This document shows positions 1 through 45,316 of a stretch of DNA of 64,000 nt, piece after piece. A program made the position numbers and the translations under genes. The notes under the pieces were generated by a model, which ran no database searches, had not been told where the DNA came from, and saw only the letters and a list, made by a program, of their open reading frames with translations. How positions within the stretch are numbered: position 1 is the first letter of the stretch; each line of letters starts with the position of its first letter. Origin of the DNA: an uncultured Acidobacteriota bacterium (GTDB lineage Bacteria > Acidobacteriota > UBA6911 > RPQK01 > JAPXNP01). Location of the stretch: contig CAVZRV010000035.1 of the NCBI GenBank assembly GCA_963777605.1, positions 32,001 to 96,000 on the forward strand. Direction: 5' to 3'.

Positions 1-122
1 ATGTTCTGAGGCCACAGGGTCTTCCAGGGCTTCCGCCAGGGCACGACACCCTGTTCCAGCTTCTCGAGGATCGCATCGGTGATTCGCTGATGGGCGGGTG
101 GGTTGGTTCGCTCGATCTTCAT
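1..122 (-). CDS. ardC: ArdC-family antirestriction/ssDNA-binding protein, N-terminal part (runs off window)
   Basis: Not in ORF track; manual translation MKIERTNPPAHQRITDAILEKLEQGVVPWRKPWKT matches the ArdC (DUF1738) N-terminal ITDxIxxxLExGxxPWxKPW signature; GGAGG RBS upstream. Confidence 0.8.
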   Translation of the reverse strand, partial: MKIERTNPPAHQRITDAILEKLEQGVVPWRKPWKTLWPQN

Positions 123-128
123 TGTTTT

Positions 129-270
129 GTCCTCCAGTGAAAGGGTTTTTCGGTTTCTTCACCCCGCCCTGAGAAACCAAAAACCTCGAACTGGAGGACC
201 CAGAGAAGGACCTGAAAGGCGACCGTCGAAGCGCCGGGCATCCAGAGTGACAGGCCCCGCCCTGGCGCGA
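129..270 (-). promoter_or_regulatory. Conserved upstream hairpin module, copy A (before ardC)
   Basis: IR gtcctccagt/actggaggac (129-138/190-199) enclosing a second stem; ctcgaa bulge; box tgacaggccccgccctggcgcga (248-270) shared with 2885-2907 and 22465-22487. Confidence 0.6.
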
Positions 271-578
271 GGGATGCTGCGCGAAGACGTAGCCTGGAGG
301 GTCCACGCAAACAAGATCGAGCAAGCGAGCCAACATCGCGACCAGAGCGAGAAAGAACATGAGACTGTCGGAAGCATGAGAATGCACGGCCGGAGATCCC
401 GTGTTCCGGCTACCCGCTACCGCGGTCTGCCTGCAGGAACGAGGCAGCACTGGCAGGATCCAGCCGGATGTCTGATGTGAGCGCACCCGGCTCTTCATTG
501 GCCGAGCCCTGACGGTCGTCAGCTCAGGCAGCGGCTTCGCACCATCGGCTCGACCTCAGTGAGTCGGACGAGCCGAGG

Positions 579-611
579 TTGCACGTCGGTATACTTTTGC
601 ACTATAGTGCA
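579..611 (+). promoter_or_regulatory. Sigma70-like promoter overlapped by probable TetR operator
   Basis: TTGCAC (579-584), 18 bp, TATAGT (603-608); perfect 14-bp palindrome tgcactatagtgca (598-611) just before the tetR ATG at 619. Confidence 0.65.
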
Positions 612-618
612 TGACCCA

Positions 619-1218
619 ATGAATCCGATTCCGACTCGGGCACCATCTTGGACGACGACATCAGATCGGATCTACAGGGCCGCGATCTCGTTGTTTCGGC
701 GGAGGGACTTCACTGAAGTGACGATCGAAGACATTACTTCTGCGGCCAAGACCTGTCGACGTACCTTCTTCAACCATTTCCCCACGAAGGAGCACGTTCT
801 CGCCCGACTCCACCAGGAACTGACGGCAGACTGTCTGGCACGGGCGGAGAAGGCCACACAACACGACGGCTGGGAACGCATCGATGCCGCCTTTGATGCC
901 TTTGCTGTCGCGGTCATGGCCGAACCCATCCTGGGCAGATCACTGCTTCGGTTGGTTTTCGTGAGTGATGTCCTGGCCAGCCAGGACCAGCAGGACGTTC
1001 TGATTCTCGGCGACTGGTTGAGACGCCAACTGCACGCCGCCATTGCCGCGGGCACGCTCGGGCACTGGATCGACCTCGAGACTGCTGGCTCACTGCTGAT
1101 GGGGATTCTCAGTTCCGGCACGACGCAGTGGCTGACCTCGTTTCCGAACGCACCGGTGCCACTCGATCGGGATTTTCGGTCGAAGCTGCAATTGGTCCGC
1201 AAAGGAATGGAGACCTAA
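619..1218 (+). CDS. TetR/AcrR family transcriptional regulator
   Basis: N-terminal HTH AAISLFRRRDFTEVTIEDITSAAKTCRRTFFNHFPTKEHVL. Confidence 0.9.
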   Translation: MNPIPTRAPSWTTTSDRIYRAAISLFRRRDFTEVTIEDITSAAKTCRRTFFNHFPTKEHVLARLHQELTADCLARAEKATQHDGWERIDAAFDAFAVAVMAEPILGRSLLRLVFVSDVLASQDQQDVLILGDWLRRQLHAAIAAGTLGHWIDLETAGSLLMGILSSGTTQWLTSFPNAPVPLDRDFRSKLQLVRKGMET

Positions 1219-2421
1219 GTGAGATTACTGTACCGACTCAGTTCGGCCCTCGCGATAGTAGTTCTGGTTCTTGGATGGGTCCTATACCTGGCGCGCAACT
1301 CGGCCGTGGCCGTCGTCATGGACCTGCTGCCCGTAGCCCTGACGCTCTTCGGCTTCAGCGTGTTGCTTTCGCTCGTGATCGTCCTGAGCTCGGCCCGAAT
1401 GCGTTGGCCAACCGTCGTCGTGGCCATCGCTGCGCTGGTTGGGCTGGGATTCTCGCTTTGGAGCCTCGTCACCAGAGTTCCCAGCGAGGACGTGGTCTTC
1501 ACGAGCGGATCCGTCGAACTCAGGGGCACGGTCTATTCTGCCCAGACGGAGAGTCATCCTCCGGGGGTTGTCCTCGTCCATGGTTCGGGCCGGGAAACCC
1601 GGTCGGAGCACCGGTTTTACGCCCGTTTTCTGGCCCAGAGAGGAATCACCACGCTGGCTTTCGACAAACGCGGAGCCGGGGCATCCGGTGGTAGCACCTA
1701 CGAAGCGGACTACCTTGACTATGCCGACGATGTCGTGGCGGCGGTCGAATGCCTTTCACGGATGCCTAATGTGGATCCAAACCGGATTGGGCTGGTCGGC
1801 TTCAGCGAAGCGGAGTGGGTTGCCCCGGTTGCGGAGAACCGCTCGGACTCGATCGCATTCATCGTGATCATTGGGGCATCAGGGTTGCGGCCTGTCGACC
1901 AAGTCGAGGAAGAAATCCGACTTCGACTCGACAGGAAGGGCTTTGCCGAAGCGGATGTGCAGAAGGCGGAAGCACTTTATCGCCTCTACGCAGACTATCT
2001 CCGCGGAAAGGCCGATGCCGCTCGAGTGCGGGCCGAGATTGAGAATGCCTCCCGAACCCCCTGGTTTGCGGCTGCAGAGGATCTCCCCGATCAGGTGTAT
2101 CCACGGGGGGAGTACGCCTGGTGGCGTCGAGTGATGGATTTTGACCCGTCACCGTACTGGCGCCGGGTTGACGTGCCCGTCCTGCTACTCAAAGGAATGG
2201 AGGACGATCGCTCCGCGGCCGCGCCCTCCGCCAAACGCCTCGAGGCCATGATTTCCGCTCCGTGCGATGTGCGCCTTTTCCAGGGAGCCGATCATATGCT
2301 GCTTCAGTGGCCCATCGCTCCAAGGCTTCCCCCTCCCGTTTTTGCCGACGGGTATCCCCAGATCGTAGCCGACTGGATCCTCAAGACCGTTCAGGGCTCG
2401 GAGGAGAATACTGGGCCATAG
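1219..2421 (+). CDS. Membrane-anchored alpha/beta hydrolase (S9/S15-like)
   Basis: Three N-terminal hydrophobic segments; VHGSG, FDKRGAGAS, nucleophile elbow GFSEA, GADH; abuts tetR stop. Confidence 0.88.
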   Translation: MRLLYRLSSALAIVVLVLGWVLYLARNSAVAVVMDLLPVALTLFGFSVLLSLVIVLSSARMRWPTVVVAIAALVGLGFSLWSLVTRVPSEDVVFTSGSVELRGTVYSAQTESHPPGVVLVHGSGRETRSEHRFYARFLAQRGITTLAFDKRGAGASGGSTYEADYLDYADDVVAAVECLSRMPNVDPNRIGLVGFSEAEWVAPVAENRSDSIAFIVIIGASGLRPVDQVEEEIRLRLDRKGFAEADVQKAEALYRLYADYLRGKADAARVRAEIENASRTPWFAAAEDLPDQVYPRGEYAWWRRVMDFDPSPYWRRVDVPVLLLKGMEDDRSAAAPSAKRLEAMISAPCDVRLFQGADHMLLQWPIAPRLPPPVFADGYPQIVADWILKTVQGSEENTGP

Positions 2422-2955
2422 CCCGCCTTGGCGCACAGGGTTCTTTCAAGGAGTCTTCCCGGACCAGATAGGAAGTGGAAGGAGGGCCGGCGGTGGCCGC
2501 CGGTCCGGAGGGAGGGCTCAAGGAAGACTCGGGCTGCTCCTGCAGCTCGAGGATCCGCGAGTAAGCGAGATCGGCGACCTTGGCGAGGACGAGCAGGTCG
2601 TCGCGGCTGAAGCTGCGGGTGGCCTTCCACGAGTCGCCATCCTTATAGAGGCGCTCGAAGGTGACCGAGTGTCGGATCCCTCCCGAGTTGTCGTTCGTCC
2701 AGATGGCGGCTTTGATGGAGCCGATTCGGACCGTCGCTGTGGGTTTTGTGTTTGCCATGATTCGTTTCTCCTTTTCTGTGTGATTTTTCTTTCGCCCCGA
2801 ACTTGAAGAAAAATCCACAGAACTCGAAGGGAGAAACCCGCACCCGGTCGGCGAGGGGCGAAAAGTCCGGACAGGCAACAGGAATGACAGGCTCGTCCCT
2901 GGCGTGACCGTTGCCCGGACCGCCCAACGCCGATCGGACAAAGCCTGGGCATGGC
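1736..2955. repeat. ~1.2-kb direct repeat, copy 1 (3' part of hydrolase + small gene + upstream module)
   Basis: Aligns by eye with 21319-22535 from tggcggcggtcgaatgcc to gggcatggc, with scattered substitutions. Confidence 0.92.
2381..2758 (-). CDS. Small conserved mobile-element protein, putative PC4/Whirly-like ssDNA binder, copy 1
   Basis: MANTKPTATVRIGSIKAAIWTN...SVTFERLYKDGDSWKATRSFSRDDLLVLAKVADLA; AAGGAG RBS; present in three copies; fold is inference. Confidence 0.75.
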   Translation of the reverse strand: MANTKPTATVRIGSIKAAIWTNDNSGGIRHSVTFERLYKDGDSWKATRSFSRDDLLVLAKVADLAYSRILELQEQPESSLSPPSGPAATAGPPSTSYLVREDSLKEPCAPRRAMAQYSPPSPERS

Positions 2956-3354
2956 CAACCACGAAACCCAGACGGGCCGATCGAGTCCTTGCGAAGCTGG
3001 ACTACTGATTGAACTCAAGAACGGGGGTGCACCAATCTGCCACCTCGGGCCTCTACGAGCGGTTGTTCAAACGGAGAACCGTGATCCGGAAGACAACCGG
3101 CGGGCGCAAGAACGTTGCCGACGTCCAACTCGCTCCGGCGCGAGGCCGTCCAATCAGAATCCCGTTGACGGAGTGTCGACCGGGGACTATCGTCGATCTG
3201 TCCTGGATGAGCCGCCCATCAGGGAAGTTGAAGTGAGTTTTCCAAGGAGGTTTCGTTACACTGCGGCTTTCGTGATACTCCTGGTGCTGGCTGTCTGGCT
3301 CGCACTGGATGACGAAGGGACGAGCCCCAACCCGTTCCAACAACCCAAAACCAA

Positions 3355-3385
3355 CAACGGGGTAGGGAAATGTCATCGTCGAGCA
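3355..3385 (-). mobile_element. Isolated terminal-repeat remnant related to the element at 18896-20909
   Basis: Minus strand tgctcgacgatgacatttccctaccccgttg resembles both ends of that element (tgctcagcgacaattacatctccct; actacatttccctaccccgttg). Confidence 0.6.
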
Positions 3386-3430
3386 AGTGTCCGTCGAAAC
3401 GACACAATGGAGTGCAGTATGCAGACTGAT

Positions 3431-4240
3431 CCTTCGTTTCCGGATCCGCCTTGCGGCAGATGTAGGGCTCAATGTGGTGCCACTGCACGTAGCTGTAGAA
3501 AGCCTGGTTGAACTCGACTTCTCCGTAATGCTCGGCCAGAACGGCCAGTTTCATCTGATCGTAGACGATCTCCTGCGGGATTCCTCCGAAGTAGCGAAAG
3601 GCCGCTTCATGAAACGACAGCAGCATCTGGGTATCGATCGGTCGATCGAACCACTCGACGTACTTGTGCCGGCTCGACGACAGCACCATCGCCACAAAGA
3701 AAACACTGCGCCGACGATCCCCGATCCGCACGCCCCGCTTCTCGGCCAGGTCCACCATGGCTTGTCGGCCGGGCGGTGTCTCGAACCGCCGGTAGACTCG
3801 GTTTGGTCGGAAGACCGGACGCAGGCTCTCGATGAAACGCCGCACGCTGCGGGTCGATCCCTCGTAGCCCAACTTCTTCAACTCGTGATAGATCGCTTCC
3901 GCGTTGACGACACCGTCCTCGGCCATCCGCTTGACCCGGGTCTGGATCCAATCCTTGTAATCGTCCAGTTTCCGGCGGCGTTTCTGCGGAGCTTCCCGTT
4001 CGCCGGCGATCTCCTCCATCGTCTGGTCCCGGTACTTGCGGACCGTCTTGCGGTCGATCTTCAACTCGCGCGCCACTTCCGACACCGTCCTCCCAGCTGC
4101 CAACTTCACCTTGATCTCGTTCACTGTTCCCCAACCTTTCAATCCGATGTCCTCCCTTTCGGGCGAACATCCTACGTTCCGGTCTTGAAGGTGGGGAATT
4201 TTATTGGCCAAAAAGTGGGGAATTTTGTTGGCCGGTCACA
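3431..4240 (-). mobile_element. istA: Truncated IS21-family element (left end plus 5' part of istA, TTG start ~4142)
   Basis: End TGTGACCGGCC with tandem ggccaa.aaaattccccac repeats; HTH, RFETPPGRQAMVD and IPQEIVYDQMK motifs; homology stops at KADPETK before the catalytic E; no istB. Confidence 0.88.
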
Positions 4241-4252
4241 GATGGGTTTCAC

Positions 4253-5455
4253 TCAGAAATCATTGTAGTGCTTGTCCTCACATTCCGGGCAGATCCCATG
4301 TGAGAACTCCGCATCAGAATGATCCCGAACAAACTCTTCGACTTCGTTCCAGTAGCCCCCGTCGTCGCGGATCCTTTTGCAGTGCATGCAGATCGGGATC
4401 AGTCCTTCAAGGGTCCGCACCTGTTTGATCTTTTCCTGCAACTGGCCGATCAGGTCATCCCGCTCCAGTTGGATCTTTTTGAGGTCAGTTACGTCCGATC
4501 CGACGCCGATCAGGCAGCGGTCGCGAAACTGTGAATTCTGCCACAGGATCGAATGCCGATTTCCCGAGATATCTCGGACGGTCTCTTCGTAGAGCGCCTG
4601 CCCGTCACCACTGAGGGCAAAGCCTGAAATCCGCTCCTTACGCTCATTCGGGCAATCCTCATCCGTTGACGAAAGCTGGTACCACCCGTCTCCAAGGACT
4701 TCTTCCTGCTTGAATCCGAATGTGCGCTCCACCGAAGGGCTTGCATAGATGACTTCCCCGTCGGAGTCCGCCACAAGGATGATGTTTGAAACGGACGACA
4801 GGATCTGGTTTGCGAAGTCTGCCTCCGCGCTTGCTTTCCGATGGGCTTCGGTTTCAAGTTCAAGAGCTGAATATGCTTCTTCCAACGCGCGGAAGTGGGC
4901 CTCATCCCTTATCCGAGTCCGTTCTTTCTCAATTTCGTTCTTGACGACAACATGCCGCAAAATATAGGCGATCAGGAGAGCAATAACGATCGGGAGTATC
5001 AGGTAACCCGCACCCCTGACAGAGGGGATTTGTGAGACGACGGCCACCCACGTGACAAGAGTGAGGAGATGGAGTCCGATCAAGTGGTGAAGGGGCAACA
5101 GGATAAAACCGGCACCCATGAGTAGCAAAAGGACATTCACCGAGTACCGCAGATCCACTGATAGGAGGAGGACGGCCTGCACGTTGATCAGGATCAGGAA
5201 TGCGGCACCCAGTGCGGTCCCCTTTGTTCGACTGTAGCGGGTATCGGGGTCGCGGATCAGAAGGTATCCACCGAAAAGCAGGAGCGCGGTGAGGAAGGCA
5301 AGCGCCGACAAGTACGTGGAAGCTGGGGCTTTGAATCGTGAGAAGTCCAACCCGATGGCGATAAGATAGATTCCTGCAAGGCTTGGAAGTGCAAGGCGGA
5401 GTGCCCGTCGTGTGACTTCAAGCAACACTTCATCGTGCAGGGGCTGATCAGTCAT
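4253..5455 (-). CDS. Membrane PAS-domain sensor with C-terminal CxxC...CxxC domain
   Basis: About six TM segments, PAS (IYASPSVERTFG), C-terminal LIPICMHCKRIRDDGGYW...SHGICPEC. Confidence 0.8.
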   Translation of the reverse strand: MTDQPLHDEVLLEVTRRALRLALPSLAGIYLIAIGLDFSRFKAPASTYLSALAFLTALLLFGGYLLIRDPDTRYSRTKGTALGAAFLILINVQAVLLLSVDLRYSVNVLLLLMGAGFILLPLHHLIGLHLLTLVTWVAVVSQIPSVRGAGYLILPIVIALLIAYILRHVVVKNEIEKERTRIRDEAHFRALEEAYSALELETEAHRKASAEADFANQILSSVSNIILVADSDGEVIYASPSVERTFGFKQEEVLGDGWYQLSSTDEDCPNERKERISGFALSGDGQALYEETVRDISGNRHSILWQNSQFRDRCLIGVGSDVTDLKKIQLERDDLIGQLQEKIKQVRTLEGLIPICMHCKRIRDDGGYWNEVEEFVRDHSDAEFSHGICPECEDKHYNDF

Positions 5456-5826
5456 CTTTTCGGCTCCTTGGCGCTCCGGGCGAAACACCGATGGCTCAAA
5501 CCATTGAGGCGGTCAATTATGCGGGATTCCCTATGCTGTATGAGAAGTGATGGCAGTGTTCAAAATGATCAGTTGGCGTTTATACCTCGCTCTTGGGCCG
5601 GTCAGGAAGCCTAGTATAGATATTTCGAGTAATTCAATGCCTCTCCGATACTTCCGGATCCAATCATTGAGGTGGATGGGGCGCTTTTGTTGACACCGGC
5701 GAGTTTGTCGTCCGGAATCGCCGGTTTGAGAGGGGACCAGGGGGATGACTGGACGCGGGGGGGCGATCGCCACCCGGTGACGCGGAGGTATCTGAGATGG
5801 AATCGGGGGTGGTGATCAAACCATGA

Positions 5827-6105
5827 TTACCTGCCTGCGCCGTCGAGAGGAAGCCGAGGGGTGGAAGCCGGAGTGTGCCGGGTGTCCGGTTTGACGGAGC
5901 GGATGACCAGGTAGAGCTGGTTCTGAGCGCTGTTGACGTATCCCGAGACGCAGTAGCCGCGGTCGGCGGCGATGATCTGGGATTTGGAGAAGTCGTACAG
6001 GCGATAGACCCGCTGGGTATCGCGGTCCTTCATGCGGAAGACGACACAGGAACGACATTCCGTCCGGGAAAGCAGCACGAGGTGATTGGCGCTGAAGTTG
6101 AACAT
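5827..6105 (-). CDS. Hypothetical protein inside IS21, downstream of istB
   Basis: Plausible beta-rich 92-aa ORF MFNFSANHLVLLSRTECRSCVVFRMKD... lying inside the IRs. Confidence 0.55.
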   Translation of the reverse strand: MFNFSANHLVLLSRTECRSCVVFRMKDRDTQRVYRLYDFSKSQIIAADRGYCVSGYVNSAQNQLYLVIRSVKPDTRHTPASTPRLPLDGAGR

Positions 6106-6180
6106 GGAGACGGCCGTTGGCGCAGAACCCGGGGGCGACCGCATGAAGCGAGCCGCCCCATCGGCAGCGCCGTTGAGGGG

Positions 6181-6993
6181 TTAGCCCGCCGGACTCCTCC
6201 GGTCAGGGTTATCATCACAGGGCGGCGCTTCTTCTGAACCGGCCTGGGGCTTGCGAGGCCGGGCCTTTTTCGCTTTGCGCAGCGACTCCCCTCCGAGCAG
6301 GAAGACTTCGGAGTTCTCCACCAACCGGTCGGCGATGGCGGTGGCGATGGTGGTGTTGTAGAGGATATTGCCCCAGTCGGAGAATGGAGTGTTCGTCGTG
6401 AGGACCGTGCTGCGGCGTTCGGCATGGCGGGTGGAGATGACCTGGTAGAAGAGGTTGGAGGTCTGCTGGTCGAGGGAGAGATAGCCCACTTCGTCACAAA
6501 CGAGAAGCGCAGGAGCGGTGTAGACCTTGAGCTTGCGGACGAGCGAGTGGTCGAGCTGGGAGGCCAACAGCTGATTGAGCATGTCCATGGCCGAGGTGAA
6601 CAGGACGCGATGGTTGGCCTGACAGGCCTTCCAGGCGATGATCTTGGCCAGGAAGGTCTTGCCGACCCCGGGGTTGCCGATGATCACCAGATTGGTGCCT
6701 TGGGCGATGAAGTCGAGATCGAGCAGTCGTAGAATGCGCGACTTCAGGCTCAGGCGGGACTTGTGATGCTGGAAATCGAAGTCCTCGATCCCGGAGCGGA
6801 CTTGCAGGCGGGACTGGCGAAAGCGTCGTTCGACCGAACGGCCGCGCCGCTCTTCCAGTTCGAGATCGGCCAGCCATTCGAGTGAGGCGGCCAGGCTGAG
6901 GTTGCGACGGGAGGCTTCGGTGAGCACCGTCTCGAGTCGACTCTGCATGCCGACGAGGCGCAACTCGTCGAGTTTGGATTCCAGGGAAGTCAT
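6181..6993 (-). CDS. istB: IS21 helper AAA+ ATPase
   Basis: Walker A GNPGVGKT, Walker B LLVCDEVGY, TTN and AIADRL motifs. Confidence 0.96.
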   Translation of the reverse strand: MTSLESKLDELRLVGMQSRLETVLTEASRRNLSLAASLEWLADLELEERRGRSVERRFRQSRLQVRSGIEDFDFQHHKSRLSLKSRILRLLDLDFIAQGTNLVIIGNPGVGKTFLAKIIAWKACQANHRVLFTSAMDMLNQLLASQLDHSLVRKLKVYTAPALLVCDEVGYLSLDQQTSNLFYQVISTRHAERRSTVLTTNTPFSDWGNILYNTTIATAIADRLVENSEVFLLGGESLRKAKKARPRKPQAGSEEAPPCDDNPDRRSPAG

Positions 6994-8468
6994 TCGTCGT
7001 CTCCTTCTTCGAAGATCAAGGCGTCATAATCCAGTAGGGACAGCGGATCGGTGGCGAGCTCGTTCAGGCGGGGATCCTTCAGGCGCAAAGGCGGTTCGGG
7101 GCGACGCAAGTGCTGTTCCTGGCTGAGGAGATTGGCGATGTAGTCGGCGCCGTAAGCGCCGGCCGCATGCGCTTTACCCAGCGCTTCGGAAACCGGTTCC
7201 GGCCCGTAGAGACGGACCAGCTCCAGCAACTCGGTGATCTGGCGGGAGAGCGAGCGGTCGGTCTCGGCCAGAGCCCGCAGGTAGGTCTCGACCGCCGGTC
7301 CGAGCAAAGCGATGAGGCGCGCCTGCGCCTGGGAGGTGCGGGCGGCCGGGCGGCTGTCGACGAGTTCCTCGCGGAAGCGGTCGGCCCCGATCACCTGACC
7401 GCGGCGCCACGAGCGGGCGTAGGAGGTGACCTCGCGGCGGCCATCGTAGAGGGTGACCGACTGGGCGTCGGCCTTGAGGGTCAGCAGACGGCCGACGTAA
7501 CGAGGGGGAGTGCAGTAGCGGTTGCCGTCGAAGTGGACCCGCAGATCCTTGTAGACGCGGACCTGGGCCGTGTCGCGATAATCGGGATCGAGCGGCGGCA
7601 AGGGCCGCAGAGCCTGGGGCTGGAAACGCTCGCGGGGCGTCTGTCGCGTTTCCCGATGGCGGCGCTGGTGCGCCACCTCCTCCAGCCACTGGCGGACCTG
7701 ACGATTGACGTCGACCAGATCGCGGAACGTCCGCAGCGGCCAGAAGCTCTGGCGCAGGTAGCGGATGCCGGCGCGCTCGACGGTCCCCTTTTCCCAGCCG
7801 GCGGCTGGATTGCAGGCCCGGGGATAGAAGCCGTACTCGCGCGCAAAAGTCAGGAAGCGCGGCTGGAAACGGACCAGGCGACCGTCCCGTTCCGCGACGG
7901 CAGTCAGCAGATTGTCATACCAAATCTCCCGACTGACACCCCCGAACGCCCGGAAGGCGTGGATATGACCGCGCACAAAAGTTTCGAAGCCCTGGCTGTG
8001 AGTGAACTCGACGTACAGGAGCCGGCTGTGGCAGTCGACTAGGACGAAGGCATAGAGCTTGCGGCGGTCTCCCTCGTATTCCAGTCCGCCGAAGTGGCCC
8101 CAGTCGACCTCGAAGCGCTCGCCGGGTTGCGGGTCCATGCGCAGAAAGGCTCGAGCCGGCCGACGGGGCCGCACCCGCGCCAGGTAGTCGCGCAGGATGC
8201 TGACCCCGCCCTGATAACCCAACCGGCGCAGGTGCTGAAGCAGGACCGAGCCTGGGGCCCGGGGGTCCCGTTCCAACAGATCGCGAAGGATCGGCTTGAA
8301 AGGGTCGAGCTTACTGGCTCGCGGCGGCATCGAAGCCCGGGCGACGGGGCCGTTGCGGTACTTGCGGACGGTCGTGCGGCTGACGCCGAGATGACCGGCG
8401 ATCTTGCGGATCGACCAGTGTTCGCCGTGATGGAGTCGATAGATGGCATCAAGGATGGCCGGGTCCAT
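6990..8468 (-). CDS. istA: IS21 DDE transposase
   Basis: HTH, SKLDPFKP, EVDWG, IWYDN, EKGTVER; AGGAG RBS before ATG 8468; ATGA overlap with istB. Confidence 0.95.
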   Translation of the reverse strand: MDPAILDAIYRLHHGEHWSIRKIAGHLGVSRTTVRKYRNGPVARASMPPRASKLDPFKPILRDLLERDPRAPGSVLLQHLRRLGYQGGVSILRDYLARVRPRRPARAFLRMDPQPGERFEVDWGHFGGLEYEGDRRKLYAFVLVDCHSRLLYVEFTHSQGFETFVRGHIHAFRAFGGVSREIWYDNLLTAVAERDGRLVRFQPRFLTFAREYGFYPRACNPAAGWEKGTVERAGIRYLRQSFWPLRTFRDLVDVNRQVRQWLEEVAHQRRHRETRQTPRERFQPQALRPLPPLDPDYRDTAQVRVYKDLRVHFDGNRYCTPPRYVGRLLTLKADAQSVTLYDGRREVTSYARSWRRGQVIGADRFREELVDSRPAARTSQAQARLIALLGPAVETYLRALAETDRSLSRQITELLELVRLYGPEPVSEALGKAHAAGAYGADYIANLLSQEQHLRRPEPPLRLKDPRLNELATDPLSLLDYDALIFEEGDDE

Positions 8469-8544
8469 AGCGAGGTCTCCTGAACTCAGGCTTCCTGATA
8501 CCCCGTTCGAGGTCGATCCGACCAGAGCGATGTTGTTTACAAGA

Positions 8545-9000
8545 TCACGCGGCCTCCTCTTGGTTTCCTTCAACCTTCTGGAAAATGAGGAGTTCGGAGA
8601 GAGCCACGTTGTTCTTTACAAGCTCGACCGCCTCACGTTGGATCAGCCAAACTTCTGAAGTCAAAGACTTTAGATCCAAAGCTACGTTGTTCTTTACAAG
8701 ACGATCGAGCCGGCGACGCCGATCGCGGAGGCGCTGTTTTCGACGGTTCTCCTCGGTGTACCGGGCATGGCTTTCCCGGTACCGGCGCTGGTAGTCGGGG
8801 TTGTGGGCGCGCCACTTCTGCCGGCTGTCCCGGCAGGTCTGCTGGTACTCGGGATCGGACTCCAGTTTCTTGCGGTGATACTCCCGGCGGCGCCGACGTT
8901 GGCAATCGGGGTCCGAGCAGATGCGCTGTTGCGGGCAATAGGGGGACGGGAGGAACTCCCGATGACAATAAGGGCAACGGTGGCCGGCACTCCTTCCCAT
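8545..9000 (-). CDS. Cys-rich basic accessory protein upstream of istA
   Basis: CPYCHREF...QRICSDPDCQRRRRREYHRKK; C-terminal LVKNNVAL repeats; inside the IS IRs. Confidence 0.7.
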   Translation of the reverse strand: MGRSAGHRCPYCHREFLPSPYCPQQRICSDPDCQRRRRREYHRKKLESDPEYQQTCRDSRQKWRAHNPDYQRRYRESHARYTEENRRKQRLRDRRRRLDRLVKNNVALDLKSLTSEVWLIQREAVELVKNNVALSELLIFQKVEGNQEEAA

Positions 9001-11317: not shown

Positions 11318-12004
11318 ATGATGAGGAATATAATAGCGTTTTTCACAGTATTCATGCTGGTCCTGTCGTGGACGTGGGCCAAAGATACAACAGACGAAAA
11401 GGAACGAGCCCGAGACTCGGCGGCAGTGCTCAAAGAGATGCTCAATGCTCCAGATGCCGAAATCCCGGCGGAGCTTCTGGAAAAGGCGCAGGCGATCGCG
11501 GTGATCCCGCATGTAATCAAAGGTGCCTTTGGAGTGGGAGGCAGTTATGGCAAAGGTCTGGTTTCTCAGCGCAAGGCCGATGGAAGCTGGTCTCCCCCCT
11601 CGTTCATTGAAGTTGGAGGGGCGAGTTTCGGACTTCAGATCGGTGCAGAAGCGACCGATTACCTGCTCATCTTCACGAACAGGGAAGGGATGGAGCCACT
11701 CCTGAAGGGTAAGGTCAAGCTCGGAGGCGAAGCCTCTGTGGCGGCCGGTCCGGTGGGGAGAACGGCCAACGCGGCGACCGACGTGACTCTGGATGCCGCG
11801 GTTTACTCGTATTCGAGGAGTAAAGGGGCATTCGCGGGAGTCTCTCTCGACGGAACGGTGCTCTCAATCGATGACAGTGCCAATGAAAGCACATACGGTA
11901 AGCGAGTCAGCGCGCAGGACATCCTGATCAACGGCAAGGTTTCCTCGAACGCCGTGGTTGGTCCCTTTCTCCAGGTGTTGCGGGCAAATGTGCCGCCTGC
12001 GTAA
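11318..12004 (+). CDS. SYLF/YSC84-like lipid-binding secreted protein
   Basis: Signal peptide; KGAFGVGGSYGKG, GASFGLQIG, AAGPVGR, YSYSRSKGAFAGVSLDG. Confidence 0.9.
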   Translation: MMRNIIAFFTVFMLVLSWTWAKDTTDEKERARDSAAVLKEMLNAPDAEIPAELLEKAQAIAVIPHVIKGAFGVGGSYGKGLVSQRKADGSWSPPSFIEVGGASFGLQIGAEATDYLLIFTNREGMEPLLKGKVKLGGEASVAAGPVGRTANAATDVTLDAAVYSYSRSKGAFAGVSLDGTVLSIDDSANESTYGKRVSAQDILINGKVSSNAVVGPFLQVLRANVPPA

Positions 12005-21318: not shown

Positions 21319-22535
21319 TGGCGGCGGTCGAATGCCTTTCACGGATGCCTAATGTGGATTCAAACCGGATTGGGCTGGTCGGCTTCAGCGAAGCGGAGTG
21401 GGTCGCCCCGGTCGCCGAAAACCGCTCGGATCTGATCTCGTTCATCGTGATTGTCGGGGCGTCGGGGTTGAGGCCTGTCGACCAGGTCGAGGAAGAAATC
21501 CGACTTCGACTCGAAAGGAAGGGCTTTGCCGAAGCGGATGTGCGGAGGGCGACGGCACTTCATCGCCTCTACTCCGATTATCTGCGCGGAAAGGCCGATG
21601 CTCCGCGAGTCCGGTCCGAGATTGAGAAGGACTCCCGGGCTCCCTGGTTTGCGGCCGCGGAAGATCTTCCCGATCAGGTGTATCCGCGGGAAGAGTACGG
21701 ATGGTGGCGCCGCGTGATGGATTTTGATCCGTCACCGTACTGGCGCCGGGTCGACGTGCCCGTCCTGCTACTCAAAGGAACGGAAGATGATCGCTCCGCG
21801 GCAGCGCCCTCCGCCCAACGCCTCGAGGCCATGATTTCCGCTCCGTGCGATGTGCGCCTGTTCCAGGGAGCCGATCACATGCTGCTTCAGTGGCCCATCG
21901 CTCCAAGGGTTCCCCCTCCCGTTTTTGCTGACGGATATCCCCAGATCGTAGCCGACTGGATCCTCAGGACCGTTCGGGGCCCGGAGGAGAATACTGGGCC
22001 ATAGCCCTCCTCGGCGGGCAGGGTTTCTTCCAGGAGTCTTCCAGAAGCGGAGAGGAACGGAAGAAGGGCCGGCAGTGGCCACCGGCCCGGAGGGACGACT
22101 CAGTCGGAAGCCGGGGGCTCCTGGAGTTCCAGGATTCGCGAGTAGGCGAGATCGGCGACCTTGGCGAGGACGAGCAGGTCGTCGCGGCTGAAGCTGCGGG
22201 TCGCCTTCCACGAGTCGCCATCCTTATAGAGGCGCTCGAAGGTGACCGAGTGCCGGATCCCTCCCGAGTTGTCGTTCGCCCAGATGGCGGCCTTGATGGA
22301 ACCGATTCGGACCGTCGCTGTGGGTTTTGTGTTTGCCATGATTCGTTTCTCCTTTCTGTGTGATTTTTCTTTCGCCCCGACCTTGAAGAAAAATCCACAG
22401 AACTCGAAGGGAGAAACCCGCACCCGGTCGGCGGTGGGCGAAAAGTCCGGACAGGCAACAGGAATGACAGGCTCGTCCCTGGCGTGACCGTTGCCCGGAC
22501 CGCCCAACGTCGATCGGACAAAGCGCGGGCATGGC
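21319..22535. repeat. ~1.2-kb direct repeat, copy 2 (contains 5'-truncated hydrolase 21319-22004)
   Basis: Near-identical to 1736-2955; hydrolase homology starts at AAVECLSR. Confidence 0.92.
22100..22339 (-). CDS. Small putative ssDNA-binding protein, copy 2 (79 aa)
   Basis: MANTKPTATVRIGSIKAAIWANDNSGG...RILELQEPPASD. Confidence 0.8.
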   Translation of the reverse strand: MANTKPTATVRIGSIKAAIWANDNSGGIRHSVTFERLYKDGDSWKATRSFSRDDLLVLAKVADLAYSRILELQEPPASD

Positions 22536-24674: not shown

Positions 24675-24910
24675 TCAGTCGGAAGCCGGAGGCTCCTGGA
24701 GTTCCAGGATCCGCGTGTAGGTGAGATCGGCGACCTTGGCGAGGACGAGCAGGTCGTCGCGGCTGAAGCTCCGAGTCGACTTCCACCCGTTGTCGCCGTC
24801 CTTATACAGGCGCTCGAAGGTGACCGAGTGGCGGATACCTCCCGAGTTGCCGTTCGTCCAGATGGCGGCCTTGATGGAACCGATTCGGACCGTCACTGTG
24901 GGTTTTGTGT
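24675..24910 (-). pseudogene. Small putative ssDNA-binding gene, copy 3 (start codon and upstream module lost)
   Basis: TVRIGSIKAAIWTNGNSGG...; DNA similarity to copies 1 and 2 stops just short of the ATG. Confidence 0.75.
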
Positions 24911-36534: not shown

Positions 36535-38181
36535 ATGGTTCAAAGACTGACATTATCACTGGTAACGGTGCTGACCCTGGCAGTGGCTATCGCCCCGCTC
36601 AGAAGCCGGAGACTCGAAGGGGCGGAGTGCCAGCCGACCCTGATCATCTGGAATGCCCGGGTGTGGACCGGCAATCCGAATCAACCGCGAGCGGAGGCAG
36701 TTGCATTTGTAGGTCATCGCATCCTCCTCGTTGGTACGAACGAGGAGGTGCTGTCTTCTCGCCAGCCTTCGACAAAGCTGGTTGATGCTGGAGGAAATTC
36801 GGTATTACCCGGGTTCATCGATGCCCATTTTCATCTTCTTGATCTCAAGCCGCCCAAGGAATCGATCAATCTGCGCTGGGCGTCAAGCAAGCGGGAGTTC
36901 ATCGAAACTGTCGCCGGATATACCCGATCGGTTCCGGAGGGAGAATGGATCCTGGGAGAGGGCTGGGACGAACGGAAGTGGGGCGGTGAGCTGCCCGAAA
37001 GGGGATGGATCGACTCCGTTACCGGACACAATCCGGTCTGGCTCGTAAGGAACCACGGAGGAGCCGGACTGGCCAATTCGCAGGCTCTGAAGGCAGCCGG
37101 AATAACTGTGAGTTCGAGCCGAAACCTTCAGGGAGTTGCCCTCGATCCGAATGGAATACCCACCGGGCTGATTCGCGGAGGGCCTATGTGGCTCATCGAC
37201 GCCGCCCAGGTTGAAAGACACTTGGGGACTGCAGGTGATGAGGCCGAAGCCCTCATGCACCGTCTCGCTGCCCTTGGGGTCACCTCGGTACACCACACCG
37301 GGAACTGGCAGGAACTACTCGTCTTCCAGATGCTGGATCGAGAGCACAGGCTTCCCATTCGGATCTACGCCGGGGTCCCGTTTCTGGGCTGGGAGAGGCT
37401 GCGCGACTATATTGCTGCTAACGGCAGGGGGGATCGCCTTCTCCATTGGGGCGGTCTGAAGCTTTTCAGGGATATCCCCTGGATCGAGGGAGATACGTCA
37501 ATTCCGACAAGGCTGGACCGCTGGGCAATTCTCCCGACTGAGGGCGAGGTAAGAGAATGGATTCTGGAGGCATCGAAGGCGCGACTGCAGATCATGGTCC
37601 ACGCCGGCGGGCTGCGCTTTCTGAAGCTCTTCAATCAGGTCCACGAGGCTCTGGGTTCTCCGGATCTCAGATTCCGGATCGAACACGCCCACGACATTCC
37701 ATCCGACTGGATTCCTTTATACGCGCGCGCCGGCGTGATCGCGAGTATCCAACCTCCTCTTCTGGCACACTTCGACATTAGAACGAAGCTGGGGCAGGCC
37801 AAGCCGATAAACCTCTTTCCGTGTCGAGCGTTGCTCGAGTCGGGAGTCACCATTGCATTTGGCACCGATGCAATCACGGCCAGTTCCCTGCTCTCGCCCT
37901 TTGAGGTGATAAGGATGGCTGTCGAACGCCCCGGTCCTGATGGACGGAGGTTAAGTCTTGAGCAGTGTCTGCAGGCTTATACCATCTCCGCGGCATATGC
38001 GGAGTTCGAAGAGAAGGAGAAAGGCACCATCGAACCGGGCAAATGGGCAGACACCATCCTGCTCGACCGTGACCTGTTCGCACAGCCAATCTCAGACCTC
38101 GGAGAGATTCGGGTCGTTCTCACTGTCATGGACGGAGAGATCGTCCATGGAGGTGCTTTGTATTCTGCGGGGGCCAACTAA
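36535..38181 (+). CDS. Amidohydrolase family 3 (YtcJ-like)
   Basis: LPGFIDAHFH, RFRIEHAH, AFGTD, GTIEPGKWAD. Confidence 0.92.
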   Translation: MVQRLTLSLVTVLTLAVAIAPLRSRRLEGAECQPTLIIWNARVWTGNPNQPRAEAVAFVGHRILLVGTNEEVLSSRQPSTKLVDAGGNSVLPGFIDAHFHLLDLKPPKESINLRWASSKREFIETVAGYTRSVPEGEWILGEGWDERKWGGELPERGWIDSVTGHNPVWLVRNHGGAGLANSQALKAAGITVSSSRNLQGVALDPNGIPTGLIRGGPMWLIDAAQVERHLGTAGDEAEALMHRLAALGVTSVHHTGNWQELLVFQMLDREHRLPIRIYAGVPFLGWERLRDYIAANGRGDRLLHWGGLKLFRDIPWIEGDTSIPTRLDRWAILPTEGEVREWILEASKARLQIMVHAGGLRFLKLFNQVHEALGSPDLRFRIEHAHDIPSDWIPLYARAGVIASIQPPLLAHFDIRTKLGQAKPINLFPCRALLESGVTIAFGTDAITASSLLSPFEVIRMAVERPGPDGRRLSLEQCLQAYTISAAYAEFEEKEKGTIEPGKWADTILLDRDLFAQPISDLGEIRVVLTVMDGEIVHGGALYSAGAN

Positions 38182-38697: not shown

Positions 38698-38865
38698 TCA
38701 TCGCTGAACGCGCCCTTGCTTTCGCGGCCAGGCTCTGGGGTTGTATTTTTCTCGTTGTGCAGTCCAAGGATTTTTGCGCAAGTGAGGTGGGCCAGTTTGG
38801 GGAAGAGTGGAAGAGCGTCGCCCCAGCCGCGCGGCGGAGCTTCCGCTCGCCGCTATCCAGCCGAA

Positions 38866-39755
38866 TCAACGGTCGCGCTCGATTGCTGCGGGCCCGGCGC
38901 GGGAGTGGGTTCGTTGTCGGAAGGCGGCTGCGGCTTTTTTGACGGTGTGTCTTGCGTAATACCGAGGATCGTCTTGTCGGAGCGGAATTCGGCCATGGCG
39001 GTGATGATCTTTTCCTCGGGGACTCCTCGGGCCAGGGCTCGCATGGCGTAGGCCCAGTCTTTTTCGGATTGGGAGCGGTGGCCGTCGGGGAGTTGGCGTT
39101 CTCCGGAGATTGGGGAGAGCTGTTCGGGGGTGAAGCGAGGGAACTGGTCGGGGCGGTAGATTTCGTCGGAGAGTTTCTCGGCGGTGACCGGATGGGGCGG
39201 GTCGTATTTGTGGTTGAGGAAGCCGGGGATTCGGAGGACCCGGGAGGAGTCGGTTGCGGCGGGGTCGGCGCCGGTTTCCCGGACGAGGGCTCGCTGGATT
39301 CCTTCGGCCTGGTCTTGCTCGAAGCCTTCCGCCTTCCAGATGATCTGGTACTTTCCGGCCGAGCTCTGGACGACATAGTTCGGGGTCGGAATGTCGGTTC
39401 GTTCGAGGAGACGATTCAGCGCTTCGGGGCCTCCGTGGTCGAGATCGAGATAGATGTGGCGGATGGTGCCGATGTCCTCCTTGGTCCGGCCGGTTGCCTG
39501 GGGTCGGAGGGCATTCATGGAGAGATAGACTTCGTAACGGCGGGAGTTCATGAAGCGAAGCCAGCGCTGGAAGTCTTCGGCGGCGATTCGCTCGGCCGAG
39601 GCGATCCGCTGAACCACGCCGCCATGTCTTCGGTTGACGAGGACGAGCGCGACTCGGTCTTTGGGTTCGAAGTTGTCGCGGATATAGGCGGCGGCCGTTT
39701 CCGAGTCGGTGCTCTGGTCTTTCAAGGTGTCGGTTCTTGATGCTGGGTCAATCAT
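38866..39755 (-). CDS. RepB-type (RSF1010 RepB'-like) DNA primase; frameshift near C-terminus
   Basis: VYLSMN, IYLDLD, VVQSSAGKYQIIW, ADPAATDSSRVLRIPGFLNHK, SQSEKDW; shift ~38973 restores DDPRYYARHTV. Confidence 0.8.
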
Positions 39756-40719
39756 GGTCTGCTCCATTTCGGCGGTACAGGACTTGGAGTTCATACCGGT
39801 CCCGTCCCGGATCGTAGTGTTGGATTTCGAGGACCTCCGCGACCTGGCGCCTGCCCTTTCGTCGCTCGATGTGCAGAAGGAGATGGATCGAGTCGGCGAT
39901 GCTGCTTCGCACGGCCGTGTAGGGCAGTTCGACACCGCTTTGAAGGACACAGCTCGTAAAGCGAGCAACGGCTTGCTCGGCCGAGTTGGCGTGGATCGTG
40001 GAGAGCGTTCCGGAATGGCCGGTATTGAGCGCCTGGAGGAGATCGAAGGCTTCCCCGCCCCGCACTTCGCCGAGGATGATCCGATCGGGCCGGTGGCGAA
40101 GGGCCGCCCGCAAGAGATCCCGGATCGTGACGGCCGGCAGTCCCGGATGATCGCGACGGGCCTCGAGGCGCACCAGGTTGGCCTTATCGATCTGGATCTC
40201 GGCCGTATCCTCGATCAGAATCAATCGACACGATGCGGGGACGAAGGCCGTCAGTGCGTTGAGCAGCGTCGTCTTGCCGCTGGCCGTACCGCCACTGATC
40301 AGGATGTTCTTCTCCGATTCGATGGCCTTCTGCAGCGTATTGACGAGATCGGTGGTCAGCGTGCCGATCCGGATCAGCTCTTCGGCGGTAAAGCGCTTGT
40401 TGTGGAACTTCCGGATGGTCAAGGTGGTTCCGCCGACAGAACACGGAGGAAAGACCGCGGCGACCCGCGAGCCGTCCGGAAGCCGCGAGTCGAGGATCGG
40501 CTTTTCCTCGGAGATCTCGTCGTCAAGTGCCCGGGCGATGTTTCGGGCGGCAATCTGCAGGCTCTTCTCCGAGATCTCGACCCCACGAACCGGCTCCACC
40601 AGGCCGTGTCGTTCGATGAAGACGCGGGAAGGGGCATTGATCATGATTTCGCTGACTTCCGGGTCCCGGATGAGGTTTTCGATCGGTCGAAGAAAGGGCA
40701 GGATCACGTCGAAGCTCAT
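39748..40719 (-). CDS. virB11: VirB11/CpaF ATPase
   Basis: SGGTASGKTT, IEDTAE, LRHRPDRIILGEVRG, NTGH, STIHA. Confidence 0.93.
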   Translation of the reverse strand: MSFDVILPFLRPIENLIRDPEVSEIMINAPSRVFIERHGLVEPVRGVEISEKSLQIAARNIARALDDEISEEKPILDSRLPDGSRVAAVFPPCSVGGTTLTIRKFHNKRFTAEELIRIGTLTTDLVNTLQKAIESEKNILISGGTASGKTTLLNALTAFVPASCRLILIEDTAEIQIDKANLVRLEARRDHPGLPAVTIRDLLRAALRHRPDRIILGEVRGGEAFDLLQALNTGHSGTLSTIHANSAEQAVARFTSCVLQSGVELPYTAVRSSIADSIHLLLHIERRKGRRQVAEVLEIQHYDPGRDRYELQVLYRRNGADHD

Positions 40720-42719: not shown

Positions 42720-42785
42720 GGCCTGCAGAAGACACGTTCGAGGGTTGCCGGTTCATGAACTCGGTGTGAGTCGTGAACCTCAGGA

Positions 42786-42926
42786 GGCAAGCAGGGATGC
42801 TTGCCCTACGCTGTAGTGAGTTGTGGGGTGGGCGGGAGCGACCCTGGCCGAACCTTCGGGGGAGGAGTTAAGGTCTGGGCGCCTCAGGCGCCCAATGACC
42901 GGGGTCGCTCCCGCCCACCCCACGAC
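42786..42926. other. Candidate oriT/ssi: 28-bp inverted repeat plus flanking hairpins
   Basis: Arms 42820-42847 and 42899-42926 (22-bp perfect core); inner tgggcgcctcaggcgccca; ggcaagca-ggga-tgcttgcc hairpin; largest intergenic gap in the tra cluster. Confidence 0.55.
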
Positions 42927-43080
42927 CCCGCGAAGCGCCCAAAGGGACGCGACGCGGTTTCGCAATGTATTGATAATTCTTGGCTTTGGCCTTATCGAGC
43001 GGGTGAAGCTGCGGTGAAATCTACGGTCGAAACCCTGATGCAGACAAGTCGTCGATCGTCTTGGCGGCGCAAGAAGTGAT

Positions 43081-44106
43081 TCAGCGCCTGTTAAAGCTGT
43101 CGAGAAAGTCATAGTTGTGCTCCAGGCGAGCAGGTTTGAAAGTCCACAGAAATCGGAAACGGTAAGCTCCGCGATCCTGGATCCTTTCGGTGACCGCACG
43201 ATCGCCATCCTCTTTCCAGAGTCGAAGAGGGATTGGGTGTCCGGGCTGTTGAAGAGTCGGCGAGCTCTCTTCAGACGGATCAATCTGTCCCGGCTCAGGG
43301 ATTGAAACTGTTTGGTTTCGTAGAGGTGCTCCAGACGGAAGTACTCGAGAAGGCCGGCAGCATAGGTCTCGTTTGCTCGCCTCGGAGTCGAGCAACGCGA
43401 CAAGGGATTTCACTCTGCGTCTTGCCGCCTGAAAGTGTCGTTCCGTGTCCGCGATGTAGAAGAGCCGAAGCGTGCCCAACTGCTGAACAGTCGGCTGTAC
43501 TGGTTGAGAAACGTGTCGAAGCCCGCCAGCGATCGAGCCCCCGAGTCGACGTAGCAGAAGGAGACCACAGGCGAAGAGTCTGCGTCGTCAGACGAGACAA
43601 AGAGGGGAAACTTATCGACGAAGTAGCGGATGGTTTCGTCATCCGATTGCTTCGAGGAGTAGAGCTTTCCTCGGTAGGAGATCCGGACGAGAGTTTCCTC
43701 GTGATTGGTGAAGTAATCGACCTTCTCGCGTTCGGTGGCCAGGTAGGTTCGCTCCGGATCAGTCAGCACAAAATCGAGGGCCATCAGTTTGGTCTTGATG
43801 GCGGAGGGAGCATCGCTGGCGGCGGTTGCGGTTGTTCGGATCGCCCAGAGCCTCGAAGAACGGACGGGACGAGAGGTGAAAGACCCCGGTGTTGTTCGGA
43901 AAGACCGTGGCGCGGCGAGTGGCGATTGGCCGCCGATCCTCCACGAGTTGGATCACGGTCGTACCGTTACGGCAACCCACGAACGGTCTGTACTGGCGGC
44001 GCACAAAGTAACCGCCATGAAGGGCTGCGAGTACGAGAAAGGCGGCTTCCCGTTCGTTGTACCCGAATTCCTGGAGTGCTTCGATCCGCTGTTGCTGGGT
44101 CATCAC
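43081..44106 (-). pseudogene. Conserved tra-associated hypothetical protein (wHTH-like N-terminus), frameshifted
   Basis: FGYNEREAAFLVLAALHGGYFVRRQY / KLMALDFVL...YFVDKFP / LRLFYIAD in successive frames. Confidence 0.65.
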
Positions 44107-45312: not shown

Positions 45313-45316
45313 CGCG

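Follow-up and report, generated by a model that had tools for sequence, protein, structure and literature searches.

A structured two-domain cassette of about 170-200 nt, whose 3' hairpin is built on the Shine-Dalgarno sequence (SD) of the gene that follows, is repeated three times in the stretch of DNA analysed here, a window of 64,000 nucleotides from an uncultured Acidobacteriota bacterium (assembly GCA_963777605.1, contig CAVZRV010000035.1, positions 32,001 to 96,000 of the forward strand). In the window this module stands before ardC and before each of two copies of a small gene, all on the minus strand, and across related loci the genes directly behind it encode no fewer than five unrelated proteins, namely ArdC, a small beta-protein, a Cys/His protein, a membrane protein and one of 92 aa. 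The structure and sequence of the module are conserved, its helices covary, its place relative to the SD and the ATG is fixed, and it occurs specifically on the strand of the genes. It is thus a conserved, covarying cis-element upstream of ardC and of unrelated conjugative-element genes, as a preliminary description of the window had proposed, and it co-ordinates establishment-type genes of integrative conjugative elements (ICEs). That it acts as RNA, and what would open its hairpin, we infer; the reading that we tentatively favour is an mRNA leader that gates translation through the SD helix. The interpretation first given to these leaders, a Frpo- or CUP-like regulatory module of early anti-defence genes, is partly supported.

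Architecture of the module

The modules lie at 120-290 (ardC), 2756-2927 (small gene copy 1) and 22337-22507 (copy 2), and each has a 3' and a 5' domain. Read along the minus strand, each window gene is preceded by a box, TC(G/A)CGCCAGG-N6-GCCUGUCA, then by some 50 nt of partly similar sequence, and then by a long imperfect hairpin. In every gene family that carries the module, the outer helix of this hairpin pairs an anti-SD arm with the SD itself, and a short spacer and the ATG follow. The outer stem before ardC is CCTCCAG/CTGGAGG (191-197/131-137), and that before the small gene is TTTCTCC/GGAGAAA, which likewise pairs the SD.

The 5' domain is a rod around a CGCGCCAG...CUGUCA core, which corresponds to what was initially called a "distal box". 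Its stems P1 (CCGAC/GUCGG) and P2 (GCAAG/CUUGC) enclose an internal loop, after which comes a short helix, P3 (GCCAG/CUG(U/G)C). The long form is topped by two variable mini-hairpins, Ha and Hb, while short forms without them are found in the window copies and in related loci L002, L004, L006, L007, L008, L016, L018, L029 and L036. After a linker of about 30 nt the 3' domain begins, in which the outer helix (anti-SD:SD), an internal loop, a middle helix (GGGUUUG/CAAACCC in most copies) and an inner helix lead up to an apical loop of about 13 nt. This loop ends in GGUGA in 71 of 81 distinct hairpins and in GUGA in 79 of them. Across the family it is the three helices, the GGUGA apical motif and the CGCGCCAG/CUGUCA core that are conserved. 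The TTCGAG bulge and the TCA..CGGGG.GAA cap, originally taken as hallmarks of the architecture, are indeed present in the window modules, but they are confined to the sub-lineage of the window (also L002, L004 and L006). In most loci the 200 nt upstream are conserved.

Some further pairings were considered. The apical GGUGA is complementary to UCACC, a sequence that the 5' domain of the same module also has, as UCAC(UC), in its box B. A kissing interaction between an apical GGGUGA and UCACUC of the 5' domain, for which 6 bp could form in most copies, is not supported, its variants (UCAG in L036, L054 and L071, GCGA in the small-gene copies of the window) being uncompensated. An alternative hairpin that would compete with the inner helix, GUGAGCG-GAAA-CGCUCAC, can be drawn in Terriglobia and Bryobacterales copies, whereas L008, L029, L054 and the window copies do not have it. 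The linker showed no conserved pairing as a hairpin or terminator, the single weak terminator-like match, in L062, not being conserved.

Homology searches and distribution

A covariance model of the 3' domain (R1), built from 37 locus hairpins with the window excluded and run with filters off, picked out exactly three window sites, each of them on the minus strand: 120-199 (30.6 bits, E 9e-06), 2756-2835 (29.9 bits, E 1.3e-05) and 22337-22415 (25.7 bits, E 2.1e-04). The next-best match was the opposite strand of the first site (E 0.036), and the rest had E-values of at least 3.2. A second model (R2), of the long-form 5' domain and built from other genomes, had its top three matches in the window at 2831-2927 (28.7 bits, E 7.1e-04), 22411-22507 (28.5 bits, E 7.9e-04) and 203-290 (19.4 bits, E 0.049), each covering a short-form 5' domain with its linker, followed by a match with E 0.21. 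Since R2 finds the upstream neighbours of the window's R1 sites, the distal box is real and is the core of a second conserved domain. The third-best R2 match adjoins the upstream side of the R1 match before ardC, and the P1/P2 stems there enclose TCGCGCCAG-GGCGGGGC-CUGUCACUC; this domain also aligns with the small-gene leaders. Both models and the folds described below thus recovered a single architecture, with SD-pairing outer stems, in the ardC leader and in both small-gene leaders. All three examples are real, but the two small-gene modules are 96-97% identical and go back to a recent duplication, so that the window gives two independent examples rather than the three first counted. A simple pattern, TTCGAG-N(8-30)-CGGGGNGA, occurs four times in the window against 0.21 expected, a number reached in none of 100 shuffles; three of these matches are the modules and the fourth (36590-36618, minus strand), inside an amidohydrolase open reading frame (ORF), is unrelated.

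For the wider search we used the window together with 80 related loci (1,539,743 bases, both strands). These loci, to which the L numbers refer, are the best 80 of 452 confirmed in a scan of one genome per species, each taken with 10-kb flanks; of 658 candidates, 626 were homologues of the small protein at E <= 1e-3, most of them 79-85 aa long. The loci belong mostly to Acidobacteriota (Terriglobia, Bryobacterales, Acidiferrales, Versatilivoraceae), with a few from Verrucomicrobiota and Planctomycetota, and the closest relatives of the small protein (82-87% identity) are in metagenome-assembled genomes of Acidobacteriota, which by itself makes an acidobacterial origin of the window very probable. 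At E <= 0.01 there were 96 R1 and 80 R2 matches, every one on the gene strand, and 74 of the 80 R2 matches were followed by an R1 match within 15 nt. In 69 of the 80 loci an R1 match ends at the ATG of the small gene, a count in which the 37 seed sequences are included and necessarily match. No R1 match was present at this gene in 11 loci, five of them rearranged acidobacterial ones (L001, L003-L006) and six from other phyla.

Rfam 15 gave no matches in the whole window at gathering thresholds, and seven loci gave only a tRNA; an E-value search of Rfam 15 with window 1-3100 and L012 9550-10050 returned only chance-level miRNA and snoRNA matches (E 0.9-9). In a set of 72,556 plasmids, blastn (word size 11, E <= 1e-3) found no match to a canonical module (L012:9801-10003) or to the ardC module. 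Distant homologues of the small protein are encoded on four Planctomycetota plasmids, and in the one of them that was examined, pSINAC03, there is no module, the best R1 match (E 0.68) being at another gene. In this conjugative MOBF plasmid of Singulisphaera (L081, NC_019895.1) a different long inverted repeat with an AT-rich loop, at about 11808-11878, precedes the distant homologue, after which come a hypothetical gene and a large ParB-family gene. No published description of the module was found in open-access papers, bioRxiv or Rfam 15, subscription journals being outside the scope of that search.

Folding and covariation

Folded as RNA and compared with 200 dinucleotide shuffles, the window hairpins had z-scores of -3.88 (ardC, -37.6 kcal/mol), -3.02 (small gene copy 1) and -2.76, with 0, 3 and 3 of the shuffles folding as well; as plus-strand DNA, z-scores were -4.78 and -5.88 and no shuffle of 200 was as good. 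Covariation of the module is strong. In the 3' domain (81 distinct sequences) 91.6% of the alignment cells at paired positions can pair, against 74.6 +/- 0.5% after shuffling (none of 500 shuffles as high) and 42.4-58.7% when the partners are slid by one to three columns. Changes on both sides were seen in 21 of 22 pairs, including all six of the anti-SD:SD helix, in which 88.5% of the cells are paired. The alignment of this domain was fitted to the model, which favours the structure, but the slid controls and the folds of single sequences speak for a real signal.

The 5' domain was examined in two alignments. In a plain MAFFT alignment of 37 sequences, 85.9% of cells paired, against 78.9% shuffled and 31-51% slid, with compensatory changes in 11 of 22 pairs; in a model-fitted alignment of 73 distinct sequences the figures were 88.1% against 79.8%, with compensatory changes in 13 of 22. 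P3 is invariant and hence uninformative for covariation, one of its five positions being a conserved C.U mismatch (60 of 73). Misaligned window rows in the raw 64-sequence MAFFT alignment left RNAalifold with only six inner-helix pairs, and from a gappy 84-sequence alignment of the 5' domain it recovered none, so the structures were written by hand from single-sequence folds and tested by pair counts.

Genes behind the module

Apart from those at the query small gene, R1 had 24 matches. Thirteen lie before a gene for a 161-aa membrane protein (12 of the 13 copies of this gene have the module), five before an ORF of 14-17 codons that is followed by a second SD and ATG and a 92-aa protein, two before ardC (L004 and L006), and one each before a gene for an 84-aa Cys/His-rich protein, before a second small gene and before a 10-codon ORF ahead of a rearranged small gene; the last, a weak match in a Gemmataceae locus (L069), has no ATG. 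Counting the window, three of the six ardC genes whose N-terminus is in the material have the module. In Bryobacterales the genes form a co-oriented array with one module per gene, directly after genes for the type IV secretion system (T4SS), the coupling protein, VirB11 and a nuclease. The preliminary description had expected anti-defence or ssb genes as partners, and this holds for ArdC, but the other partner proteins belong to no known family as judged from Pfam, NCBIfam and sequence and fold searches of the PDB.

The AlphaFold model of the small protein (pLDDT 88.1) has four strands and a helix. It had no Foldseek match in the PDB at E <= 0.001 (best E 0.36-0.8), and Pfam, NCBIfam and a PDB profile search returned nothing. 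The top Foldseek matches include a PC4 homologue (E 0.40) and a Pur-alpha repeat, a predicted likeness that is only a lead to binding of single-stranded DNA (ssDNA) or RNA.

In the five loci with the 14-17-codon ORF (L039 6036-6121, L040 10598-10683, L048 10551-10636, L062 10556-10641 and L070 10547-10635), the ATG of the module opens a frame starting MA(N/T)S or MTNS, near the MAN start of the small gene itself, and the 92-aa protein (MSSHVHIGLYDALREAGAS...) starts from the second SD and ATG, 48 nt further down. It looks as if in these Bryobacterales loci the module had been copied along with the first codons of the small gene. Conservation beyond the module, about 190-400 nt before the small-gene ATG, was seen in L010, L012, L013, L046, L058, L061, L062 and L070, where blocks such as GGTTGCGCCATGTT and CACCGTTCACTTTGGCAAG occur only before the first gene of the array. 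In L062 and L070 a non-coding stretch of about 450 nt lies directly behind the T4SS, coupling-protein, VirB11 and nuclease genes, and from its conservation and position it is a candidate promoter or origin of transfer (oriT). Directly upstream of the small-gene module of L010, at 2971-8779 (minus strand), are genes for an OLD-family ATPase/TOPRIM protein, an SMC-like ATPase and a metallophosphatase; by their annotation these appear defence-system-like, within the same mobile region.

RNA leader or single-stranded DNA signal

As an mRNA leader, the module would be transcribed as the 5' leader or the intercistronic spacer of the genes behind it, and its 3' hairpin would keep the SD in a helix, so that translation of each gene would have to wait until the hairpin was opened or cut. 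What triggers this might be a common factor recognising the GGUGA apical loop and the CGCGCCAG/CUGUCA core, or alternatively ribosome standby binding or nucleolytic processing, and a shared trigger would place all genes with the module under one control. In the full window leaders the partition function gives the SD a probability of being unpaired of 0.000-0.001 (ardC 0.000, small gene copy 1 0.001), which rises to 0.61-0.76 once the 5' arm of the hairpin is absent. P1 and P2 together have 58 G.U against 10 A.C cells, as expected for a sense RNA (66 against 25 for the whole 5' domain). Between the genes of the L062 array we found no sigma-70-like promoter or terminator, which fits intercistronic RNA elements. 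Since the SD is always in the outer helix, is predicted to be closed, and neither promoters nor terminators separate the genes of that array, a transcribed leader that closes the SD is the simplest mechanism. In the 3' tail of 16S rRNA, UCACC precedes CCUCC (the anti-SD), and by complementarity to this UCACC the GGUGA loop may dock ribosomes.

Several observations weigh against such a leader. In the SD hairpin A.C cells exceed G.U cells (86 against 35), opposite to what is usual for a sense RNA, both domains fold with lower z-scores on the antisense strand, and on that strand both mini-hairpins of the long form have 3-nt loops of GAA, GGA or GCA. The outer helix is imperfect in many Bryobacterales copies (5-13 of 81 cells unpaired per position), and the ardC genes of L001, L010 and L022 (three of six) lack the module.

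The same strand asymmetries bear on a different explanation, which we hold to be somewhat unlikely, namely that during entry of the ICE into a recipient the template (antisense) strand of the module acts as ssDNA, the pairing of the SD being secondary. It might then be a promoter of the Frpo/ssp kind, an ssi priming signal for a RepB-type or host primase, or a roadblock delaying synthesis of the complementary strand. The C.A mismatches of the sense strand, which are G.T wobbles on the template strand, occur at 19 of 22 pair positions of the SD hairpin against 12 for G.U, and they still prevail after clustering at 80-95% identity (46-58 against 22-30). For the 3' domain z is -4.59 antisense against -3.52 sense with RNA parameters (antisense lower in 21 of 26) and -4.11 against -3.31 with DNA parameters (22 of 26); for the 5' domain the values are -1.89 against -1.24 (19 of 21) and -1.78 against -0.68 (20 of 21), all these counts coming from related, hence not independent, sequences. 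Among 73 distinct sequences the antisense Ha and Hb include GC-GAA-GC (13), GG-GGA-CC (17), CGCC-GAA-GGCG (15) and CGCT-GAA-AGCG (9), as well as GC-AAA-GC. Triloops of the GAA/GGA/GCA class are known from ssDNA initiation sites, according to passages in PMC13037366, which also describe mini-hairpins of the GCGAAGC type as unusually stable as DNA, CCGAAGG as part of RSF1010 ssiA, where the RepB' primase recognises it, and the ssDNA promoters of the phage N4 virion RNA polymerase as hairpins with GGA or GAA triloops. A protein with a RepB_primase domain is encoded in the window ICE. The setting resembles that of F and other plasmids, where repeated GC-rich hairpins lie ahead of ard and other leading-region genes, as passages of PMC11541004 and PMC13478746 have it, and one leading-region hairpin, according to a preprint, works as a replication roadblock that stalls complementary-strand synthesis (bioRxiv 10.64898/2026.01.09.698686). 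Against a role as ssDNA stands the absence of -35, -10 and UP elements from either arm of both domains on reading the consensus, with no TTGACA/TATAAT-like pair at 16-18 nt, and sigma-70 consensus scans (window 1-3300, L062 9400-13300) found no gene-strand site in or near the modules. A sigma-54-like TGGCAC-N6-TTGC in some Terriglobia copies was rejected, its spacing being off by one and most copies having TGTCAC. The SD-hairpin arm, about 32 nt in the consensus, is too short for a promoter plus a start upstream of the SD; GAA/GGA mini-hairpins are missing from the modules of the window itself, and P1 and P2 favour the sense strand. Moreover, a role confined to ssDNA leaves unexplained why the outer helix always contains the SD, with covariation. 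No relaxase or oriT that would define the transferred strand was recognised in the window, L004, L010 or L062.

The explanations weighed here do not all exclude one another. Selection on both strands would explain the conflicting strand tests, and this is what one would expect if the module were a two-state switch reading the physical state of the ICE DNA, a combination that we regard as unlikely. On the incoming single strand, a polymerase or primase would be drawn to the template hairpins, which GNA mini-hairpins and G.T wobbles would stabilise, and RNA would start inside or just beyond the hairpin apex, without the anti-SD arm; the SD of such transcripts would therefore be free (predicted probability 0.61-0.76), and ArdC and its partners would be made immediately. 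After conversion to double-stranded DNA (dsDNA) and integration, only read-through transcripts with the entire hairpin and a shut SD (0.000-0.001) would arise. If this were true, one sequence would provide both zygotic induction, by transcription, and silencing, by translation. A special case of RNA action, quite improbable in our analysis, would make the hairpins processing sites between the cistrons of a long early transcript, where cleavage would part the anti-SD arm from the SD and so switch translation on. Phage T7 early genes are separated by RNase III sites, and the co-oriented array with one module per gene and neither promoters nor terminators in between, the long imperfect helix with conserved internal loops and the accessibility of the SD without the 5' arm would all suit processing, but the strand asymmetries would be left unexplained. 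The module could also be the target or the source of an antisense RNA covering the ribosome binding site, in the manner of FinP, the antisense RNA that controls traJ over that site, with structure selected on the antisense transcript. The wobble counts of the SD hairpin and the z-scores lean that way, and the apical loop is conserved as loop-loop recognition would need; yet the coding regions behind the module differ, leaving no place there for a conserved antisense promoter, the promoter scans of the two regions named above found none, and no terminator-like run lies behind the hairpin on the antisense strand, all of which makes this very improbable. Finally, imperfect hairpins between unrelated co-oriented small genes recall the attC sites of integrons, that is, recombination sites at cassette boundaries folded as ssDNA, and there are signs of shuffling at the 3' edge of the module, such as the small-gene first codons carried along in the five Bryobacterales loci and the rearranged region of L003-L006. 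This we consider barely credible: the gene sets are conserved and not variable, the sequence itself is conserved, SD and ATG included, no GTTRRRY-type core is seen in the consensus by eye (no formal attC search was made), and the Pfam tables show no integron integrase (IntI) beside the arrays, only an ICE-type tyrosine recombinase, in L004.

Comparison with known systems

The module shares with the Frpo and CUP systems an architecture of one repeat per establishment gene, but none of their defining sequence features. The Frpo/ssi/ssp elements are described in passages of PMC11541004 and PMC13478746 as long template-strand hairpins that hold -35, -10 and UP elements ahead of ssb, psiB, ard and other leading-region genes. 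As with those of F and ColIb-P9, we see repeated GC-rich long imperfect hairpins before several unrelated establishment genes in one orientation, and part of the strand evidence favours the template strand. Three of six ardC genes have a module upstream, and all 96 matches are co-oriented with their genes. However, the -35, -10 and UP elements that define Frpo stems are missing in and near those of the module, which therefore is not in the Frpo family, and there is no sequence similarity, as judged through the 72,556 plasmids (F-like and IncN ones included) and not through Frpo reference sequences themselves; the Frpo label of the preliminary description is accordingly dropped. The host phylum, Acidobacteriota, differs too, and so does the base of the hairpin, here the gene's own SD. 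To our knowledge such a base has not been described for Frpo.

Passages of PMC6294495 describe seven establishment units in pKM101 with a conserved stretch exceeding 400 bp ahead of each one, control of p576 by a repressor that has repeated operators, and in pLS20 a sequence upstream of ardC that is repeated before other operons, and suggest that the repeats of pKM101 and pLS20 co-ordinate the regulation of the establishment units. The likeness to the CUP repeats of the IncN plasmid pKM101 and to pLS20 lies in one conserved sequence before each of several establishment units, an ard gene included. CUPs, in contrast, are longer than 400 bp and presumably bind ArdK/ArdR as dsDNA, whereas the module is about 180 nt long, has covarying helices, abuts the start codon, lacks a promoter consensus and has no match in the plasmid set. 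It is thus not a member of the Frpo or CUP family, though it may work like one.

With leaders that sequester the SD (riboswitch platforms, RNA thermometers, the traJ leader under FinP) the module has in common a conserved SD-pairing helix, kept by compensatory change as in cis-regulatory RNAs of this class, a structured domain upstream and a predicted complete occlusion of the SD. It differs from them in having no recognised junction resembling a ligand pocket and no Rfam 15 family, in that one leader serves at least five unrelated mobile-element genes, and in wobble statistics of the SD hairpin that are atypical for a sense RNA. As for the mini-hairpin signals of ssDNA (RSF1010 ssiA/RepB', the phage G4 origin and N4 early promoters), the long form has antisense GAA/GGA triloops closed by C-G pairs, the commonest forms of Hb contain the heptamer CCGAAGG on the antisense strand, and a RepB-type primase gene is present in the window ICE too; RSF1010 ssiA was compared by description only. 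Those signals are single origin hairpins of about 40 nt, in contrast to an optional insert in a larger module, and the window's own modules have no Hb.

The element in the window

Judged from its predicted genes, the window is an integrative conjugative element with a T4SS, a coupling protein, a primase and an RPA initiator at 38.8-54.8 kb. Pfam matches at 38853-54774 (minus strand) identify a RepB-type primase (38853-39968, E 6.8e-23), the coupling protein, TrbL, TrbI, CagX, VirB3/4, a TrbC pilin and the RPA initiator; cargo elsewhere in the window includes RND efflux, beta-lactamase-fold proteins, AbiEii and IS21. At 3-122 (minus strand) lie the first 40 codons of ardC (Pfam ArdcN, E 4.1e-07), which runs past the left edge of the window and whose N-terminus is 87.5% identical to that of L004. 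In its leader the three-tier hairpin, with an outer anti-SD:SD helix and GGGGUGA in the apical loop, precedes the SD and ATG.

Small gene copy 1 (2381-2758, minus strand) has lost its usual stop and is a 125-aa ORF, of which residues 1-78 are the conserved part, while copy 2 (22101-22340, minus strand) encodes 79 aa, identical to P0002. The two belong to a 1.2-kb segmental duplication (1736-2955 and 21319-22535, 89-97% identity) that spans the 3' part of an alpha/beta-hydrolase gene, the small gene and its module. A third copy, diverged and degenerate (24675-24896, minus strand; 73 aa, GTG start, P0014), has no module upstream, and its rearranged 5' region is also seen in the relatives L003-L006.

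Upstream (minus strand) of the RPA initiator gene (53170-54774, minus strand), about eight tandem 22-nt units with the core TTCCCTCGAGGTACGG occupy 54876-55067; from their arrangement they look like the iterons of a replication origin. A direct repeat of 89 nt, 87% identical, lies at 55339-55427 and 57908-57996, and its first copy overlaps a stretch resembling the 3' half of a tRNA, where ARAGORN finds no whole tRNA. The two copies are probable att-type ends at the right border of the ICE, perhaps also of a second inserted element.

Implications for acidobacterial conjugative elements

The preliminary description had named beforehand the lack of homologues, of covariation or of matches before ardC-type genes as observations that would speak against it; homologues (96 R1 and 80 R2 matches in the window and the Acidobacteriota-dominated loci), covariation and matches before ardC-type genes were all found. 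Detailed knowledge of how establishment and anti-defence genes are expressed early and in concert is limited to a few plasmids of Proteobacteria and Bacillus, which use ssDNA promoters and repressor-based zygotic induction. What is new here is a module defined by structure, unrelated in sequence to those systems and strongly covarying, in the ICEs of a major soil phylum. Since the module marks a co-regulated gene set, its partners, among them the membrane protein and the small beta-protein, become candidates for establishment or anti-defence functions, and with the R1 and R2 models such regions can be annotated in the genomes of Acidobacteriota. Being compact, the module also lends itself to testing whether leading-region hairpins do their work at the DNA level, at the RNA level or at both.

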